Part shown: one piece after another, positions 4,468 through 51,015 of the stretch
How positions within the stretch are numbered: position 1 is the stretch's first letter
How the letters are laid out: the number at the start of each line of letters is the position of its first letter
Source of the DNA: Desulfobaccales bacterium
GTDB taxonomy: Bacteria; Desulfobacterota; Desulfobaccia; Desulfobaccales; 0-14-0-80-60-11
NCBI GenBank assembly: GCA_049585595.1
Contig: JBAVAG010000023.1
Coordinates: 2,135 to 66,134 of the forward strand
DNA length: 64,000 bases
Direction: 5' to 3'
Program-made: the position numbers and the translations under genes
The notes under the pieces: generated by a model
Told to the model about the DNA's origin: nothing
The model's input: only the letters and a program-made list of their open reading frames with translations
Databases searched by the model: none

Positions 4468-5370
4468 TTAGTATTTCTTCCTCCGCCAGCCCAGCATCCC
4501 CAGGCCCAGGATTCCGGTGCCGAACAATAGCGCCGTGGGCGGCAGGGGGACAGCAGGAATAGTTGGAACGGTCACATATCCCCCCGAGACAATCGAGGAG
4601 TTCTCGGCATCTCCTCCAAAGACCCAGCCATCAACCACCGAATGGTTAATCGTGAACATACCGTCGGGGTCCAGAAATACTCCGGTTGTGGTAGCGCCAT
4701 TGGTGTTTATCGTCATGGTGCCGCCTTCGTAGTAGTTGATCAGGACGTGGTCGGGGGTGATCCCGCCGGAAAGGGCGATACTGCCGTTGAGTCCATTGGT
4801 GGCGTCGCTGCTGGAGACATTCAAGACCACATATTGGGAGCTGGTGCCGGTGATCGTAAAGGTCCCATTGGGGAAGCTGATAGAGGTCACAGTGAAAACC
4901 CTGTTGCCGCTGCTATCCAGCACACCGCTGTTGGCATTGATCGCCCCCCCGCTGCTAATGGTAGTTGCGGTTCCGGACTCTGCGCCTAACGTAGAGGAGA
5001 GCGAGTTGAGGGCGGTGATGTCTGACGCGACATTGGGCACACTGTAATTTACCGTACCTTCAACGTCGGCCCCGGTCCCCCCCTTCTGCGTAGTAAACGG
5101 CGCAGAGAAGTTGAGGTTGCCAGTGATGACGCTGGAGGAGCCGCCGGAGAAATTGGTATCTCCTGTCCCACCAATCCCGACATCGCCGGTGAGGGTCCCG
5201 GAGTTAAATGAGAATACTGCCCCGCTCGACCCATCAAACAGCACGGCGTAATCCGCCGAATCGCCGGGCAGAAACTCGTCGGCCATGGCCGGAGACAGAC
5301 TGAACAGCACTGCCGCCAGCAGTAAGGCAGCAACCATAAAAAAGCGATTTTTGGTTCCGAGCATCTTCAT
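4468..5370 (-). CDS. PEP-CTERM sorting-domain secreted protein
   Basis: 300 aa with signal peptide MKMLGTKNRFFMVAALLLAAVLFSLSPAMA. G/S/T-rich beta-type body. C-terminus VPLPPTALLFGTGILGLGMLGWRRKKY has the PEP-CTERM architecture (PEP-like motif, TM helix, basic tail). Confidence 0.8.
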   Translation of the reverse strand: MKMLGTKNRFFMVAALLLAAVLFSLSPAMADEFLPGDSADYAVLFDGSSGAVFSFNSGTLTGDVGIGGTGDTNFSGGSSSVITGNLNFSAPFTTQKGGTGADVEGTVNYSVPNVASDITALNSLSSTLGAESGTATTISSGGAINANSGVLDSSGNRVFTVTSISFPNGTFTITGTSSQYVVLNVSSSDATNGLNGSIALSGGITPDHVLINYYEGGTMTINTNGATTTGVFLDPDGMFTINHSVVDGWVFGGDAENSSIVSGGYVTVPTIPAVPLPPTALLFGTGILGLGMLGWRRKKY

Positions 5371-5542
5371 GCTTTTTACCCCCTTGGATTTTATTTTTCT
5401 TTAAGATGTGTTTGAGGGGCTGCTTTCTAACGGAAAAAATCCGCCCCATTCCGGAAAGTTTGCCGTCCAACTATTTCGGCTGGGGCCGGCGAAGCAATCC
5501 CGCCCCCCCCCGAAAAAAACGGGAATTCTTTACAGCCAACCA

Positions 5543-5618
5543 GCCAACCCGGCTGTCTTGGCTCTAAAGAGACCCGTCACTTTCCGCCCCCGCCTCGCGA
5601 TGGGTTTGCCTTTTCCGC
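5543..5618 (-). promoter_or_regulatory. GEMM-I (cyclic-dinucleotide) riboswitch aptamer, proximal copy A
   Basis: Minus-strand RNA: aaaaGGCAAACC-CAUC-GCGA-GGCG-GGGGCGGAAAGUGACGGGUCUC...AGACAGCCGGGUUGGC. Matches the GEMM-I core (GGCAAACC, GNRA-capped P1b, GGGRCGNAAAG, GGGUCU, AGCCGGGYUGSC). Lies in the 5' leader of the PEP-CTERM gene. Confidence 0.7.
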
Positions 5619-5621
5619 TAC

Positions 5622-5810: not shown

Positions 5811-5840
5811 AAAAAGCCGGATTGCCTTCCCAGGCAACCC
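5811..5840 (-). terminator. Intrinsic terminator / expression platform of riboswitch copy B
   Basis: Minus-strand RNA GGGUUGCCugggaaGGCAAUCCGGCUUUUU. The 5' arm overlaps the 3' strand of the aptamer. Confidence 0.5.
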
Positions 5841-5907
5841 AGCTATCTCTCAGAATTTGAGACCTGTGGCTTTCCGTCCCCAGCTCACGCTGGGTTTGGC
5901 TTTTCTG
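5833..5907 (-). promoter_or_regulatory. GEMM-I (cyclic-dinucleotide) riboswitch aptamer, distal copy B
   Basis: Minus-strand RNA: cagaaaaGCCAAACC-CAGC-GUGA-GCUG-GGGACGGAAAGCCACAGGUCUCAaauucUGAGAGAUAGCUGGGUUGCC. Perfect 6-bp P1b capped by the GNRA loop GUGA, plus the conserved junction strings. Confidence 0.75.
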
Positions 5908-5915
5908 TTGAAGCA

Positions 5916-22424: not shown

Positions 22425-24344
22425 ATGTCCACAGCTCCCATCATCCTGGGCACCGCCGGCCACATCGACCACGGCAAGAGTTCCCTCATCAAGGCCCTCA
22501 CCGGGGTGGACCCGGACCGCCTCAAAGAGGAAAAGCTGCGGGGCATCACCATTGAACTGGGATTTGCGGACCTCGCCCTGCCCAATGGCCGGCACCTGGG
22601 GATCGTCGATGTCCCCGGCCACGAACGCTTCGTGCGCCACATGGTGGCCGGCGCCACCGGCATGGACCTGGTGGCCCTGGTCATCGCCGCGGATGAGGGG
22701 GTCATGCCCCAGACCAGGGAACACCTGGAGATCTGCCAGTTGCTCAAGGTAAAGCTTGGCCTGGTGGTCCTCACCAAGGTCGACCTGGTGGAGGAAGACT
22801 GGCTGGAACTGGTGGCGGAAGAGGTGCGGGAGGCCCTCAAAGGCACCTTCCTGGAGGGGGCGCCCCTGGTGCGCTTCTCCGCGGTCACCGGGGCGGGCGC
22901 CCCGGAGCTCCTGGCCACCCTGGCGGAGCTCTCCGAGCGCGTGCCGCCCAAACCGCTCAAGGGGATCTTCCGCCTGCCCATCGACCGGGTCTTCACCATC
23001 CGGGGCTTCGGCACCGTGGTCACCGGCACCGCTATCTCGGGCCGGCTGGGGGTGGGAGAGGCGGTAGCCGTCTATCCCCCGGGATTCAAGGCCAAGGTGC
23101 GGGGTCTCCAGGTTCACGGCCAAACCGTTGCAGAGGCCCAGGCCGGCAACCGCACCGCCGTCAATCTCCAGGGACTGGAAAAGGAAGAATTGCAGCGAGG
23201 CATGGTGCTGGCGCCGCCGGATGCCCTCCTGCCATCCCGGCGCCTGGACGCCTTTCTGGAAATCCTGGCCAGCGCCCCGCGGCCCCTGAAACATCGCCGG
23301 GCGGTGCGCCTCCATACCGGCACCAGCGAGCGCCTGGCCATGCCGCTCCTCCTGGACGCCGATGACCTGCCCCCGGGGTCCTCCGGCTACGTGCAGTTTT
23401 TCCTGCGGGAGCCCCTGGCTCTGAAGCCGGGCGACCGCCTGGTGATCCGCAGCTTCTCCCCGGCCTTCACCTGGGGGGGCGGCCAGATCCTCCACGTGCA
23501 TCCGCCCCGCCACCGCCGGCGCCAGGCGGAGTTGCTGGCCAGATTGGAAGTCCTGGAGAAGGGCGCCCCTGACGAGGTCCTGCCCCTCTATCTGGAAGAG
23601 GCCGGAGCCGCCGGCCTCAGCCGCAGCGAGCTTGCAGCTCTGCTCCCCTGGGACCCCGGCGACCTGTCGGCCCTGCTCTCCCGCTTCAGCAAACAGGGGC
23701 AAGCCCTCAATTACGACCCGGAGAAGGAGAGGTATATCCTCGCGGCCACGGCCGACAAACTGAAGGGAGAGATCACCGGCACCCTGGCCGCCTACCACCG
23801 CCAAAACCCCTTAAAACCCGGGCTTTCCAAGGAAGAGCTGCGCCGCCAGCTGCCTCCCCAGATGGAGGTGCGCCTCTTCAACCAGTTGCTCAACGACCTG
23901 GCGCAACAAGGTAAGATCGCCATGGAAAAAGACCTGGTGCGTCTGGCGGGGCACCGGGTCACCCTGGCCGGCGATCAGGAAGAGCACGTCAACCGCCTGG
24001 CCGCCCTCTACCGCGGAGGCGGCCTCTCGCCTCCCACCCTCAAGGAAGCCGCCGCCTCCCTTAACGTTCCTCCGGAAAAGCTCAAGCAGCTCCTGACCCT
24101 GCTGGTGAACCAGGGCGGCCTGGTCAAGGTCAAAGAGGACCTCTATTTTCACCGGGAGGCCATCGATCAGATCAAGGTCCAATTGGTGGATTTCCTCAAA
24201 AACAACCAGGAGATCACCGTCCCCCAGTTCAAGGATCTTACCCAGACCTCCCGAAAATTTACCATCCCTCTTCTCGAATACTTCGATTCGGCCCGCACCA
24301 CCGTGCGGGTGGGAGAGACCCGGCGCCTGCGCCAGGGGGGCTAG
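22425..24344 (+). CDS. selB: Selenocysteine-specific translation elongation factor
   Basis: 639 aa. G-domain [36 protein letters not shown]. Long C-terminal winged-helix extension ending ...[28 protein letters not shown], typical of SelB. Confidence 0.9.
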
Positions 24345-24422: not shown

Positions 24423-25529
24423 ATGACCGAAATTAATCCCGCACATATGAAACTGGCCCTGCGCCTGGCGGCCAAAGGGGCTGGTTGGGTCTCGCCCAAT
24501 CCCATGGTGGGCGCGCTGGTGGTCCAGGAGGGCCGCGTGGTGGGGCGAGGCTTTCACCGCCGGGCGGGGGCGGACCACGCCGAGGTGGCGGCCCTGCAAC
24601 AGGCCGGCGCCGCGGCCAGGGGAGCCGACCTTTACGTCACCCTGGAGCCCTGCAACCACCAGGGCCGCACCCCGCCGTGCACCGAGGCCATCCTGGCGGC
24701 TGGCGTGGCCCGGGTAATCATCGCCACCCCGGACCCCAACCCCCGGGTCGCCGGGGCCGGGGCCCAATTCCTCCAATCCCGGGGGATAACGGTGGAGGTG
24801 GGACTGCTGGCCCAGGAAGCCCAAGGTCTGAACCAGGCCTGGTTTCATTGGCTGGAAAGCGGTCGCCCCTGGGTCATCGCCAAGGCCGCCTGTTCCCTGG
24901 ACGGCAAGATCGCCACTGCCGGCGGCCAGAGCCAGTGGCTTACCGGTGAGCCGGCCCGGGTCTGGGGGCACCGTCTGCGCCACCAGGTGGACGCCATCCT
25001 GGTGGGAATCGAGACCGTCCTCTCTGACGACCCCGAGCTCACCACCAGGCTCCCCCGGGGGGGCAAGGACCCCATCCGTATCGTCCTGGACAGCAATTTG
25101 CGGATTCCGCTCACCTCCCGCGTCCTGAACCTGGAGTCGCCGGCGCCCACCTGGGTGGCCTGCACCGATGCGGCACCCGCTGAAAAGATCGAGGCCCTGA
25201 AGCAACTGGGAGCGGAAGTCCTGGTCTTCCCTGGTCATTCCCGGGATGCGGGAAGAGTGCCTTTACCTTCCCTGTTGAGACTGCTGGGCCGCCGGCAGGT
25301 GCAAAACCTGCTGGTGGAAGGTGGCGCTGAGGTCCTGGGCGCCTTCTTCGAGCAGAAACTGGTGAACCAGTTCTACTTCTTTTTCGCCCCTAAATTCCTG
25401 GGCGGCCGCCAGGCCCCAGGCGTGCTGGGGGGTGAAGGCATCGTTCATCTTGAGGATGCCGCCCGGGCCCGTGATTTGATAATTCGGCGAGTCGGAGCGG
25501 ATTTATTGATTAAAGGTTACCTCGAATGA
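24423..25529 (+). CDS. ribD: Bifunctional riboflavin biosynthesis deaminase/reductase
   Basis: 368 aa. Deaminase zinc motif HAEVAAL...TLEPCNHQGRTPPC, followed by the reductase domain (KAACSLDGKIAT...). Confidence 0.9.
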   Translation: MTEINPAHMKLALRLAAKGAGWVSPNPMVGALVVQEGRVVGRGFHRRAGADHAEVAALQQAGAAARGADLYVTLEPCNHQGRTPPCTEAILAAGVARVIIATPDPNPRVAGAGAQFLQSRGITVEVGLLAQEAQGLNQAWFHWLESGRPWVIAKAACSLDGKIATAGGQSQWLTGEPARVWGHRLRHQVDAILVGIETVLSDDPELTTRLPRGGKDPIRIVLDSNLRIPLTSRVLNLESPAPTWVACTDAAPAEKIEALKQLGAEVLVFPGHSRDAGRVPLPSLLRLLGRRQVQNLLVEGGAEVLGAFFEQKLVNQFYFFFAPKFLGGRQAPGVLGGEGIVHLEDAARARDLIIRRVGADLLIKGYLE

Positions 25530-47365: not shown

Positions 47366-47421
47366 CCGGGAACCTGGTAATCTCTGATTAATGAAAATAC
47401 CCCGAACTGGAGGTGGACATT

Positions 47422-48261
47422 TTGAGTACCGAAAAGATATCCCAAATAGTCAAGGGTAGATACGGTAAATTTGCCGAGACCGGGGGCGGACAGGAGTCTT
47501 GTTGACCCAGCAAAGGAGAGCCCGGTTCGGGCTTTGCGGTGGATCAGCATCTCTATAGCCAGGCGGATCTGGCCCAGGTGCCGGCGGTGGCGCGCAACCT
47601 TTCCCGCGGTTGTGGCAACCCCACCGGTTTCGTGGCTATTCAGTCAGGGGAGGTGGTGGTGGATTTCGGCTGCGGCGCTGGCCTGGATGTCATCTTGGCA
47701 GCTCGCAAGGTAGGCCCGCAAGGGAGGGTAATAGGAATAGACTTTGCTCCGGAGATGGTCGAGCGGGCCAAGCAGGCCATCGAGGCGGCGCGCTTGCCAG
47801 AAGGGAATATTGAGCTTCGCGTCGCGGATATGGCTAGCACCGAACTCCCTGATGGCTGCGTGGATGTAATAATCTCCAACTGCGTCATTAATCTGATCCC
47901 TGATAAAGCCGCGGTGTACCAAGAAGCCTTGCGCATCCTGAAACCCGGTGGCCGGGTCGCCATTTCGGATATCGTCCTTACCGAGAAAATCGGTTCCGAG
48001 CTCAAAGAGCGGTTCCAAATAACGTGGTCCGGATGTTTGGGAGGGGCGATTCCTGAAGATGAATACATTAACATGATAAGGGAAGCGGGCTTTGCCGAGA
48101 TCCAGATTGTGGCCCGGCATCTCCTAAAGCCAGTGGAATTGGAAGCCATGGCCTGTTGTCCCGGCGCAGAATTTACGCCTCCTCCCGCCAAGGATGATCT
48201 TTTCGTGGTGCAGGGCAAAGTGAGCAGCATCAAGTTCAGAGCCATTAAACATCTTCACTAG
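47422..48261 (+). CDS. arsM: ArsM-like SAM-dependent methyltransferase, probable selenoprotein (in-frame UGA at 47503-47505)
   Basis: The track ORF (47539-48261, GTG) has the SAM motif VVDFGCGAGLDV and ArsM-type DVIISNCVINL and GCLGGA. The same frame continues upstream through a single TGA to a TTG at 47422 (SD GGAGG 8 nt upstream), giving STEKISQIVKGRYGKFAETGGGQESC-U-PSKGEP. This matches the ArsM N-terminal pattern (..V.E.Y...A..GG.SCC..) with Sec in place of the second Cys. Confidence 0.75.
47510..47537 (+). promoter_or_regulatory. Candidate bacterial SECIS hairpin
   Basis: GCAAA-ggaga-GCCCG-guu-CGGGC-UUUGC starts 4 nt after the UGA. The apical loop contains G and U and sits about 19 nt from the UGA. 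Confidence 0.6.
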
Positions 48262-48426
48262 ATCTATTATGGCGCGAAACTGTTTAGGGAACCAGAAGTA
48301 CTGGGGGAGGAAGTGGTTTGCTCCAAGCCTGCGGGCGATTTTTTTGTCCCTGTTGTCCTGGTTGTCTCCGTGGTCCATTTTCGGGGCAGGCCCGGCCCGG
48401 CCTTCGACCCGGGATTATTGCCGGCC

Positions 48427-51015
48427 TCAAGGCTCTTTTTTCTCGCCTTCCAATAATCGATTATACCGGGTCTGGTCGGCAGCGGCCATTTGCTTGGACG
48501 GCGGCGTCGGTTCGTAGGGCGTGTAGTCCGGGTGTTCGCTGAATATGCTGAACATCGGCACCGCCAGGGCGTCGTTTTGGTTCATGGGGTCAATTCCGAG
48601 CAGCATCTCGATCGTGCGCAGCATGCTGAGCTGGTCGTAGCGGTCGCTCACCACCGCACCCCTCTTGACATAGGGGCCTACCGCCAAACCCACGGTCCTC
48701 GTGGCATCCACGTGATCCGGCCCGTTTTGGGCGTCGTCTTCCGTTATCAGGATGAGGCTTTCTTTCCATATGGGGCTGTGCGAGATGGTGTTGATGATAA
48801 CACCCAGGGCCGCATCGTTTTGGGCCACAAACTGATCAGGCGGAGAGGAGTGCGGATCGGTCCCGGCCGTATGGTCGTTGGGAAGCCAGATATACTGAAA
48901 TTGCGCCACCGAGTGCTGGTTGACCTGATTTTCGAAATCGGCTCTCCATACTTTAACCCTATCGAGGTCCGAAATGTTGAGGTCCCAGGAGGGGTAGTCG
49001 ATGGGGTAATGGAAGAGATATTCGGCAACTCCGTCCCGCAGTTTCTCATTGGTTCCTAACTGCGGGACCAGGCTGCTATCCCCCAGCAGGTAGAACGAGA
49101 GCACCTGGGCCACCTCAGGTCTAGTTTTCAGGAGTTCCTCAGCCTTAGCCACCGAGTCCGGCTGCGGCTCGAACAGAGCGACATGGGCATACAACCCCTC
49201 GCCGCGGTCCGTCGCCGAGGCAAGCACCATCATGCGGGCGTAGAATTTGTCATAAAATTCCTTGGCCAGGCGGGGGGTCGCCTCAAAGCTCTCCTTGAGG
49301 AGGCGCTGAGCCCTGGTATAGAGAAAATAATTCTCCCCGTAGATACGATAATCGATATTCTTCTTCTCCAGCACATCCCACAGGTACTTCGGCGAATACA
49401 GCGCCGGAACACATCCGAACGGGTAGCCTGCGTATCGGTTCGAATACGACAGGTTGCCGAGCGACTCCAGAAAGGGGCTCGCATAGCCGCTGGTGGTGAA
49501 ACTGTGGCCGAGAACGCTGATCTCGCCGTCGGCATAATAATTGTCCAGGGTCACGAACTGTTTGGCCAGTTTATGGGCGTTCGGGGTGATTCTATCCCCG
49601 AAAAGCGTCAGATACGGATCGCCATTTCCCCGTCCCAGGTCGCCCAGCACCTGGTCATAAGTGCGGTTCTCCCTGATGATGAAAAAAACGTACCGGACGG
49701 CAGGCATGTTACCCTTTTGGAAACCGTATATCGGCGCTCCCTCCTCCACCTGCCGCGTCCAGGCAGGCAGGTTCGCCTCAATCTGATCCTGGGGAATAAC
49801 CCCCAGCGTCCCTTTCAATAGAGTCAATACGTACTCATTCCTGACATTGGGTCTGCGGGCCCGGATTCCCTTGGCGCTCAGAACGGCCAGCCAATCCTTC
49901 CCGGTGATCACCTTGGTCGGATACCAGCCGGTTGGAATGAAGCCGAGAGGCTTGCCCGCCTTTTTATCGAATATCCCCACCGCGTTTCTATAAGCCAGGG
50001 TCACGAAGAGGCGGTCGCCGGCGACGGCGCACGAGGTGGGAGCGTAGCCGAACCCCTCCCCGGGGCTGCCAACGCCGATCTCGGATACGACTTCATCTTT
50101 CTGGGCATCGACCACTGATAGATTATCCGAGCCGGTGTTCACCACGTAGAGGCGGTTGGCTTGCGAGTCCGGGCAGAGATCCTGCGGGGTCTTTCCCACA
50201 GCCAGGGATTTCTGAAAATGGCCTTGGGAATCGAAGACCTTCAGTTTGTCCTCGCCCAGGATAGTGACGTATAATTTTTTGTTAAAATAGCAGACCGTGT
50301 GCGGAAAGTACCCCGCCTCTTCCTCATGTTCGATACGCCCGGTCTTCGTATTGAGAATTGCCAGTTTACCCTTTCCGTAGGTGACGCTATTTTCGGCTTT
50401 CGGCTCGCTGCCCACCACCAGGTAGACGACGGCCAGGTGGTCCGGATCGATGGGCGCCAGTCCCGCGGCATACCCTCTCACCGGATATTTCTGCACGAGT
50501 TTGAAATTGGAGTTGTAACGATAGACCGCCTGGTCGTAGCCTCCACTCACATAAAGGTCTCCGTCTAAACCGGCCGCGGCGCCCACAAACAAGGAGCCGG
50601 GGCTAAGTACCTTTACCTCCCCGGAGACCGGGTCCACGATGGAAATCTCTTGCGGCTCCTTGGAATAATACCCCGTATTGAGCACTACAATGTGCTTCCC
50701 ATAGAAGACGGCCTCTTCAGGCAACCGTCCCACCGGGAACTGCCGGCCTGCCGGGGCGATCTTCCAACCCGTCGGCAGGACAACCTCCGCAGGCGGCGCC
50801 GGCTCCGTTTTCCGCATCTTCTCAACGTGGCGTTCGGCTTCTTCGTATGGGGTCCCCTTGGCAAACCGCCAAAGCTCGCGGTTTAGGACATCCTCCTCTC
50901 CCGGCTGGTCCGGCTCCGCTAATCGTGAGTCCTGCTCCTGCTCTGCCATTGCGATCCGACAGATGAGGATCAACAAAACTGCTGCGAAAACCATCGCCAG
51001 TTTAAGCCGCTTCAT
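48427..51015 (-). CDS. Secreted fusion protein: YVTN/YncE-type beta-propeller plus phosphoesterase (PLC/AcpA-like) domain
   Basis: 862 aa with a signal peptide (LAMVFAAVLLILICRIAMA). N-half has propeller repeats (LYVVNTGSDNLSVVD...). C-half has FIIRENRTYDQVLGDL...HSFTTSG...WLPNDHTAG...ITEDDAQNGPDHVDATRT. Confidence 0.75.
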   Translation of the reverse strand: MKRLKLAMVFAAVLLILICRIAMAEQEQDSRLAEPDQPGEEDVLNRELWRFAKGTPYEEAERHVEKMRKTEPAPPAEVVLPTGWKIAPAGRQFPVGRLPEEAVFYGKHIVVLNTGYYSKEPQEISIVDPVSGEVKVLSPGSLFVGAAAGLDGDLYVSGGYDQAVYRYNSNFKLVQKYPVRGYAAGLAPIDPDHLAVVYLVVGSEPKAENSVTYGKGKLAILNTKTGRIEHEEEAGYFPHTVCYFNKKLYVTILGEDKLKVFDSQGHFQKSLAVGKTPQDLCPDSQANRLYVVNTGSDNLSVVDAQKDEVVSEIGVGSPGEGFGYAPTSCAVAGDRLFVTLAYRNAVGIFDKKAGKPLGFIPTGWYPTKVITGKDWLAVLSAKGIRARRPNVRNEYVLTLLKGTLGVIPQDQIEANLPAWTRQVEEGAPIYGFQKGNMPAVRYVFFIIRENRTYDQVLGDLGRGNGDPYLTLFGDRITPNAHKLAKQFVTLDNYYADGEISVLGHSFTTSGYASPFLESLGNLSYSNRYAGYPFGCVPALYSPKYLWDVLEKKNIDYRIYGENYFLYTRAQRLLKESFEATPRLAKEFYDKFYARMMVLASATDRGEGLYAHVALFEPQPDSVAKAEELLKTRPEVAQVLSFYLLGDSSLVPQLGTNEKLRDGVAEYLFHYPIDYPSWDLNISDLDRVKVWRADFENQVNQHSVAQFQYIWLPNDHTAGTDPHSSPPDQFVAQNDAALGVIINTISHSPIWKESLILITEDDAQNGPDHVDATRTVGLAVGPYVKRGAVVSDRYDQLSMLRTIEMLLGIDPMNQNDALAVPMFSIFSEHPDYTPYEPTPPSKQMAAADQTRYNRLLEGEKKEP

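Follow-up and report, generated by a model that had tools for sequence, protein, structure and literature searches.

An ArsM-like methyltransferase gene crosses an in-frame TGA

We analyzed a 64-kb stretch of DNA from a Desulfobaccales bacterium (contig JBAVAG010000023.1; the whole stretch is called the window here) that carries a gene for an ArsM-like methyltransferase. In the list of open reading frames (ORFs) of the window, this gene appears as a 240-residue ORF at 47539-48261 (+) with a GTG start at 47539. Translating 47380-48264 in the frame of this ORF reveals a single in-frame stop, the TGA at 47503-47505, with the sequence from 47380 onward reading ...DILSTEKISQIVKGRYGKFAETGGGQESC*PSKGEPGSGFAVDQHLY..., also written ...ILSTEKISQIVKGRYGKFAETGGGQESC*PSKGEPGSGFAVDQHLY.... 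The initial annotation of this DNA, made from the letters alone, had suggested that the TGA is decoded as selenocysteine (Sec) and that the gene starts upstream of it, at a TTG with a ribosome-binding site 8 nt away. Both the lone upstream TGA and this start were found as described, with the Shine-Dalgarno sequence GGAGG seen directly at 47409-47413 (+), 8 nt 5' of the TTG at 47422-47424 (+). With the TGA read as Sec, the full coding sequence spans 47422-48261 (+), or 279 codons plus a stop, and would encode a selenoprotein of the ArsM family of S-adenosylmethionine (SAM) methyltransferases. Codons 27 and 28, at 47500-47505 (+), then specify a dyad of Cys27 (TGT) and Sec28 (TGA) within the sequence ...GGGQESC-U-PSKGEPGSGFAVDQ....

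We take the TTG to be the true start codon, as it aligns with the ATG of orthologues (e.g. loci L001-L004 and L010) and as the match to the arsenite methyltransferase profile NF008823 begins at residue 2. The GTG at 47539-47541 (+) that ORF callers wrongly take as the start is an internal codon, for Val40. The initial annotation had recognized that its case would suffer if orthologues began uniformly at this position with nothing conserved before it, but the Val40 codon is ATT (Ile) in orthologues L009, L029, L031, and L036, and the codons upstream are strongly conserved. Nevertheless, the public gene calls that we examined all begin at the equivalent of 47539 or later, and the 240-residue product is called in all four of the listed public assemblies that hold exactly the window gene. 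Every public record that we examined thus makes the gene some 40 residues too short, and the truncated product loses one of four catalytic residues.

The UGA column is conserved across at least six phyla

We scanned for orthologues using one genome per species and recovered 37 orthologous loci. A TGA occupies exactly the window's column, with the flanks ESC*PSK, in 32 of the 37, and these carriers span at least six phyla. They include Desulfobaccales, Syntrophobacteraceae, Syntrophaceae, Desulfobacterales, Rokubacteria/Methylomirabilota, and SAR324, and, within the Chloroflexota, Dehalococcoidia, Anaerolineales, Ardenticatenales, and others. The remaining five loci, from Terriglobia, Thermoplasmata, Methanofastidiosia, Undinarchaeales, and one unclassified bacterium, have TGT or TGC in this column. 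A TGA in the same column of 32 of 37 loci, with conserved flanks, goes beyond chance. In all 33 Sec forms the TGA follows a TGT or TGC, and Cys homologues read CC or CCC at the same place, as anticipated by the initial annotation, which had put the UGA at the second Cys of a CC pair and had proposed asking whether orthologues carry TGA or Cys there.

The 26 codons upstream of the UGA are conserved as protein, with codon choice free to vary. One upstream Arg is kept by all 33 sequences, written with six different codons, and invariant Gly, Tyr, Phe, and Ala residues each use two to four. Amino acids that are kept while their codons vary are the signature of translation.

We also searched 5.8 billion proteins for homologues. 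Matches at 70-99% identity were nearly all 201-250 residues long and began right after the TGA column. Full-length homologues appeared at about 58-69% identity, with the column reading CCPS, CCCPS, or 'CWPSK'. Truncation right after the UGA column affects 24 of the 120 nearest protein clusters (the nearest of these having 224-250 residues). A further 12 have 'CW' there and the remainder are mostly CC, CCC, or CCCC, which amounts to 36 putative Sec clusters and about 80 with Cys. For the one 'CW' cluster examined in DNA, the W was a TGA that the gene caller had taken as Trp.

A bacterial SECIS-type hairpin follows the UGA

Downstream of the UGA we identified a hairpin (47510-47537, +) with the features of a bacterial selenocysteine insertion sequence (bacterial SECIS, or bSECIS), based on its fold, its conservation, and a covariance model. 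The upper stem pairs 47517-47524 with 47528-47535 and includes a conserved core, 47519-47524 with 47528-47533 (+). The apical loop, GUU, lies at 47525-47527 (+) and begins 19 nt past the UGA, and a weak lower stem, GCA/UGC, joins 47510-47512 to 47535-47537 (+). The minimum free energy (MFE) of 47503-47550 is -19.6 kcal/mol (z = -2.3), with 3 of 200 shuffles folding as well. In the window, this lowest-energy fold consists of one unbroken stem of 8 bp, AGAGCCCG/CGGGCUUU, capped by the GUU loop. Published bSECIS rules call for a loop of 3-9 nt that opens with G and then U, a spacing of 16-37 nt, and an MFE of at most -7.5 kcal/mol. The hairpin agrees with each of these, having a loop of GUU or AGUUC and a spacing of 18-19 nt, and its conserved stem has 5-6 bp, extended to 8 bp in the window. 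The initial annotation had the presence of the hairpin, the position of its loop, and its fit to bacterial SECIS geometry right; it had also drawn two stems separated by a bulge, which the continuous 8-bp stem of the MFE structure does not bear out.

Across orthologues, only the upper 5-6 bp and the weak GCA/UGC lower stem are conserved. Each of the 32 Sec forms in the alignment carries the sequence AGCCC(G/A)GUUCGGGCU, at a constant distance from the UGA (18-19 nt). Over nine proposed pairs, 92% of cells in the alignment are paired, a fraction that drops to 4-46% when the partner strand is slid by 1-3 columns. The changes that do occur are G-U wobbles and one compensatory C-G to A-U substitution, in SAR324, and the four core pairs are unbroken in every sequence. 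Folding prediction recovers the hairpin in each of the 33 Sec forms (core MFE -9.4 kcal/mol on average and -13.8 in the window), whereas four of the five Cys forms checked are without it. The Cys form that keeps a similar hairpin at the same place (GCUCCAGUUCGAGC, core MFE -9.2 kcal/mol) is that of a Methanofastidiosia archaeon (L033:2947-3006), where it may be left over from an ancestor with Sec or may reflect nothing more than shared codons.

Synonymous sites are constrained in the same place. Over the first 214 codons, the windows of lowest synonymous codon entropy take in codons -3 to +15 about the UGA, and the five stem codons (Gln-Pro-Gly-Ser-Gly) have a codon entropy of 0-0.44, against a mean of 0.98 for the region analyzed. 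We also built a covariance model from the alignment. Run against the 64-kb window, it hits a single site; Sec loci outside its training set score 76 bits, compared with 22-27 bits for Cys forms. An Rfam search of the whole window at gathering thresholds returned two tRNAs and two cyclic di-GMP (c-di-GMP) riboswitches only, leaving the hairpin unmatched, and a permissive Rfam search of 47400-47620 gave chance-level matches only (E > 1). We did not adopt a second, small helix from RNAalifold that would pair columns 4-7 with 13-16 in the UGA region, because these columns are constrained by the Cys-Sec-Pro-Ser codons.

The window encodes the Sec-specific elongation factor SelB at 22425-24344 (+), as the initial annotation had said; the match to TIGR00475 is full length (profile positions 1-580 of 581) and scores 350.3 bits against a cut-off of 242.25. 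This selB stands alone between a gene for a B12-binding radical SAM protein (TIGR03960, 19763-22306) and ribD (24423-25529), with no selAB operon. Two scripted scans for in-frame TGA codons with coding-like flanks yielded nothing convincing as a further selenoprotein gene in the window, although the first scan was insensitive, its thresholds having missed even the methyltransferase gene.

The extended protein has the fold and cysteines of ArsM

The best NCBIfam match of the extended protein, searched with Cys in place of Sec, is NF008823, covering residues 2-235. The upstream extension is therefore homologous to the ArsM N-terminus, as the initial annotation had supposed from an alignment by eye. 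Residues 74-222 match Pfam class I methyltransferase domains (PF13847 and related), and the top sequence matches in the Protein Data Bank are 5EVJ, 4FR0, 4KW7, and 8XT7, representing CrArsM, CmArsM, and human AS3MT (hAS3MT). We also used an AlphaFold2 model of the Cys homologue P0012, which is 66% identical to the window protein. The model has a predicted local distance difference test score (pLDDT) of 87 and a predicted template modeling score (pTM) of 0.86, and its best fold matches are ArsM/AS3MT structures, at template modeling (TM) scores of 0.59-0.66 and identities of 25-29%. Its sole low-confidence stretch, residues 28-41 right after the dyad, fits a mobile loop.

Four cysteines are conserved in ArsM enzymes, namely Cys44, Cys72, Cys174, and Cys224 of CmArsM (PMC6138428). 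All four family-defining positions are present in the extended protein. Cys27/Sec28 occupies the first, and the single N-terminal Cys of CrArsM aligns with this CC/CU pair. Cys64, in a GCGNP motif (47611-47613, +), corresponds to CmArsM Cys72 and hAS3MT Cys61 and is invariant in our alignments A1 and A3. Cys154 (SNCVINL; 47881-47883, +) corresponds to CmArsM Cys174 and hAS3MT Cys156, and Cys205 (GCLGGA; 48034-48036, +) to CmArsM Cys224 and hAS3MT Cys206. The last of these is Sec in the catalogued ArsM selenoproteins and Cys here. In addition, alignments A1 and A3 show a C-terminal pair specific to the subfamily, Cys245-Cys246 in an ACCPG motif (48154-48159, +). Cys246-Pro-Gly is invariant in the subfamily, usually with a second Cys before it, and is missing from the ArsM of Paraclostridium bifermentans. 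Given the ArsM fold and catalytic residues, we assigned the protein to the ArsM family.

The predicted Sec occupies a different catalytic position from that in catalogued ArsM selenoproteins

An arsenite methyltransferase selenoprotein was reportedly first flagged by Fomenko et al. in 2007, who are said to have pointed to mouse Cys157/Cys207. The family is now well recognized, in keeping with a remark in the initial annotation that SAM-methyltransferase selenoproteins had been reported before. The Global Ocean Sampling (GOS) survey of 2008 counted eight Sec sequences of ArsM and Peng 2016 found the ArsM selenoprotein in 39 organisms, in neither case with Sec positions given, so the form found in the window may already have been counted there without comment. 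Selenoproteome reviews of 2022 and 2026 place arsenite methyltransferase among the experimentally verified families. In the 2026 catalogue the motif for the ArsM Sec is UxxG; the same review separates subfamilies by the position of Sec and has no ArsM entry that resembles the window's.

For comparison, we translated the arsM of a P. bifermentans plasmid (WP_247013872.1, annotated by the NCBI Prokaryotic Genome Annotation Pipeline, PGAP), whose N-terminus contains LSCCGED and whose CLGG site appears as YCG*VTGA. BLASTP (39% identity, E = 7e-51) aligns its Cys-Cys with Cys27-Sec28 of the window protein and its Sec with Cys205. The two proteins share family, fold, the four Cys positions, an in-frame UGA, and the use of Sec for a catalytic Cys. 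However, whereas the catalogued selenoprotein (NF008823/PRK11873) has Sec at the arsenic-binding CLGG Cys and Cys-Cys at the N-terminus, the window protein has the reverse. The window subfamily also has the extra C-terminal CCPG and lacks adjacent ars genes. On the P. bifermentans plasmid (NZ_CP094934.1, L086:1313-3250), the Sec-containing arsM sits in an apparent operon with genes for an ArsR/SmtB regulator and a metallophosphoesterase.

Other relatives differ in other ways. CmArsM, CrArsM, and human AS3MT (4FR0, 4FSD, 5EVJ, 8XT7) share the class I SAM core and the positions of Cys64, Cys154, and Cys205, but use Cys only, with a single N-terminal Cys and a longer C-terminal domain. The methyltransferase domains of the NCBIfam fusion selenoproteins NF041537 (ArsM/AhpD), NF041536 (ArsM/DUF2284), and NF047649 (methyltransferase/UXPK-star) match from the N-terminus at 159-185 bits. 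The window protein falls far under the cut-offs of these models (460-575 bits) and lacks the AhpD, DUF2284, and UXPK-star parts; the Sec motif listed for the methyltransferase domain of these fusions is UxxG, compared with C-U-P-S in the window. The window protein reaches the cut-off of none of the NCBIfam selenoprotein models, and annotation pipelines relying on models of this kind can therefore be expected to go on missing its gene. Adjacent Cys and Sec, as in the window, do occur in other selenoproteins with links to metals, metalloids, or redox chemistry, as catalogued 'CU' motifs in HgcA, SaoC, and MbdU. Thioredoxin reductase likewise has a Cys-Sec dyad, in the motif GCUG. The folds of all these proteins are unrelated to that of the window protein, making the likeness a chemical analogy only. 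Thus, while the family itself is already known, placing Sec at the N-terminal redox Cys appears, from these sequence comparisons, to be uncatalogued for ArsM.

Weighing the selenoprotein reading

We conclude that 47422-48261 encodes one 279-residue selenoprotein of the ArsM/AS3MT family, with a probability of roughly 0.9. Some observations weigh against this conclusion. Covariation in the hairpin is weak, with one compensatory pair and an observed score that 20 of 500 shuffles reach. This weakness follows from the element being about 89% identical across taxa, and we therefore relied on synonymous suppression and on how the Sec forms differ from the Cys forms. We found no tRNA-Sec in the 64-kb window and no selA or selD among the 19 large window ORFs that were scanned, so the machinery is represented by selB only. 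The NF008823 match scores 242 bits, 21 below the curated cut-off of 263, covers profile positions 3-234 of 272, and leaves the C-terminal ~45 residues outside. Finally, neither the window nor 13 related loci showed ars genes or conserved neighbors, and genomic context thus lends no support to the substrate.

If the public annotation were correct, the enzyme would have 240 residues and start at GTG 47539, and the sequence upstream would be either a remnant of decayed coding sequence or an ORF of its own, 27 codons long and closed by a normal stop. Every public gene call examined is indeed truncated (224-250 residues; 240 for the window gene), yet 32 genomes from at least six phyla would not all keep one in-frame TGA in the same column of a remnant, flanked before and after by conserved residues. 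Moreover, the supposed start is ATT in four orthologues, the truncated product lacks the first of the four conserved ArsM cysteines, and synonymous sites around the TGA are constrained as an RNA element would be. We consider this explanation very improbable, and equally so a second one, that the UGA is decoded as Trp or Cys through a reassigned code or near-cognate suppression. In its favor, some gene callers rendered the codon as Trp, with 'CWPSK' in 12 clusters, but 19 of 46 large window ORFs end in TGA, making TGA a normal stop in this genome, and homologues hold Cys at the column and never a genuine TGG Trp codon. The conserved SECIS-type hairpin and the presence of selB also argue for Sec.

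The identity of the substrate is less settled than the decoding. The protein could be a genuine selenoprotein with the ArsM fold that methylates something other than arsenite, either another soft metalloid or a thiol or selenol (Sb, Te, or Se species), in a chemistry served by the Cys-Sec dyad together with the additional Cys pair at the C-terminus. The shortfall against NF008823 would fit such an enzyme, as would the name under which NCBI lists the Cys homologues, only 'methyltransferase domain-containing protein', and the invariant C-terminal CPG motif (C246) specific to the subfamily. The same can be said of the lack of ars genes near any locus examined, compared with the ArsR-family regulator beside arsM in P. 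bifermentans. Even so, all four ArsM-defining Cys positions are retained, and the nearest sequences and folds of known function are all As(III) methyltransferases. We therefore view a different substrate as unlikely, though a good deal less so than either of the alternatives concerning the UGA, and favor arsenite as the probable physiological substrate of the selenoprotein, judging from its sequence relatives.

A proposed role for the Cys-Sec dyad

A ribosome reaching the UGA at 47503-47505 would meet the hairpin 11-33 nt downstream, which is expected to recruit SelB-GTP-Sec-tRNA(Sec), so that Sec would be inserted as residue 28, right after Cys27. As a rule, the cysteines that Sec replaces are redox-active or nucleophilic. 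Its placement at the position of CmArsM Cys44 is in line with this, and predicts a selenenylsulfide intermediate in the catalytic cycle. By homology with CmArsM and hAS3MT, Cys154 and Cys205 would hold the trivalent arsenical, and Cys64 would act as third ligand and redox partner. The Cys27-Sec28 dyad, on its flexible loop, could then take the role of CmArsM Cys44 and supply electrons to reduce an enzyme-bound pentavalent methyl-arsenic intermediate. The resulting selenenylsulfide might form with Cys64 or inside the dyad, and would afterward be reduced by thioredoxin or glutathione.

This scheme parallels the disulfide-cascade model, in which Cys174 and Cys224 hold the arsenical, and Cys44 and Cys72 are needed for the first methylation only (PMC6138428). 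In human AS3MT, Cys32 is reported in a disulfide with Cys250 (PMC4211708). By analogy, we speculate that the C-terminal Cys pair of the window subfamily could be a redox partner of the N-terminal dyad.

There would then be two ArsM lineages with Sec at different catalytic cysteines, the catalogued one at the arsenic-binding site and that of the window at the N-terminal redox site. If so, the restriction of Sec to redox-active or nucleophilic positions would give independent comparative support to the idea of the N-terminal Cys as the reductant of the As(V) intermediate bound to the enzyme, and nature would have provided evidence for this Cys as a catalytic redox residue, as in the disulfide-cascade model. 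The carriers are uncultured anaerobes of peat, groundwater, and sediment, habitats in which arsenic methylation is of importance and little is known of the organisms that carry it out. An implication is that selenium supply could limit the enzyme in such habitats.

Probable spread of the Sec form and features of the surrounding loci

In a neighbor-joining tree of 151 sequences, built without support values, 69 Sec forms group together with about seven Cys sequences interspersed, and two large all-Cys clades lie outside the Sec group. Sec forms of different phyla have 60-70% protein identity and almost identical SECIS elements. In the window, the GC content at third codon positions (GC3) of the methyltransferase gene is 0.63, compared with mostly 0.70-0.84 in the other large ORFs. 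The low GC3 and the near-identity of the SECIS across at least six phyla point to horizontal acquisition. Together, these comparisons suggest that Sec was gained once or a few times and that the gene then spread horizontally with its embedded SECIS. Whether the full picture holds, of an uncatalogued ArsM-like subfamily defined by Sec in place of CmArsM Cys44/hAS3MT Cys32, whose gene and SECIS spread horizontally among anaerobes of at least six phyla, we regard as an even call.

At the SAR324 locus (L036:1982-4207), the Sec-form gene lies between two ORFs that, by eye, resemble the FAD-binding and 2Fe-2S subunits of the xanthine dehydrogenase family. It overlaps or abuts the 2Fe-2S-like ORF, with which it may be co-transcribed.

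In the window, the methyltransferase gene is convergent with a gene at 48427-51015 (-) for an 862-residue protein with beta-propeller (YVTN) repeats and a C-terminal phosphoesterase-family domain (PF04185); one assembly calls this protein as two genes, of 571 and 291 residues. The two riboswitches found by the Rfam search are tandem c-di-GMP-I aptamers at 5540-5620 and 5829-5908 (-), scoring 39.6 bits with RF01051 and 64.5 bits with RF03167, the GGC variant. They lie upstream of an ORF at 4468-5370 (-) with a putative ice-binding-like adhesin domain (PF20597).

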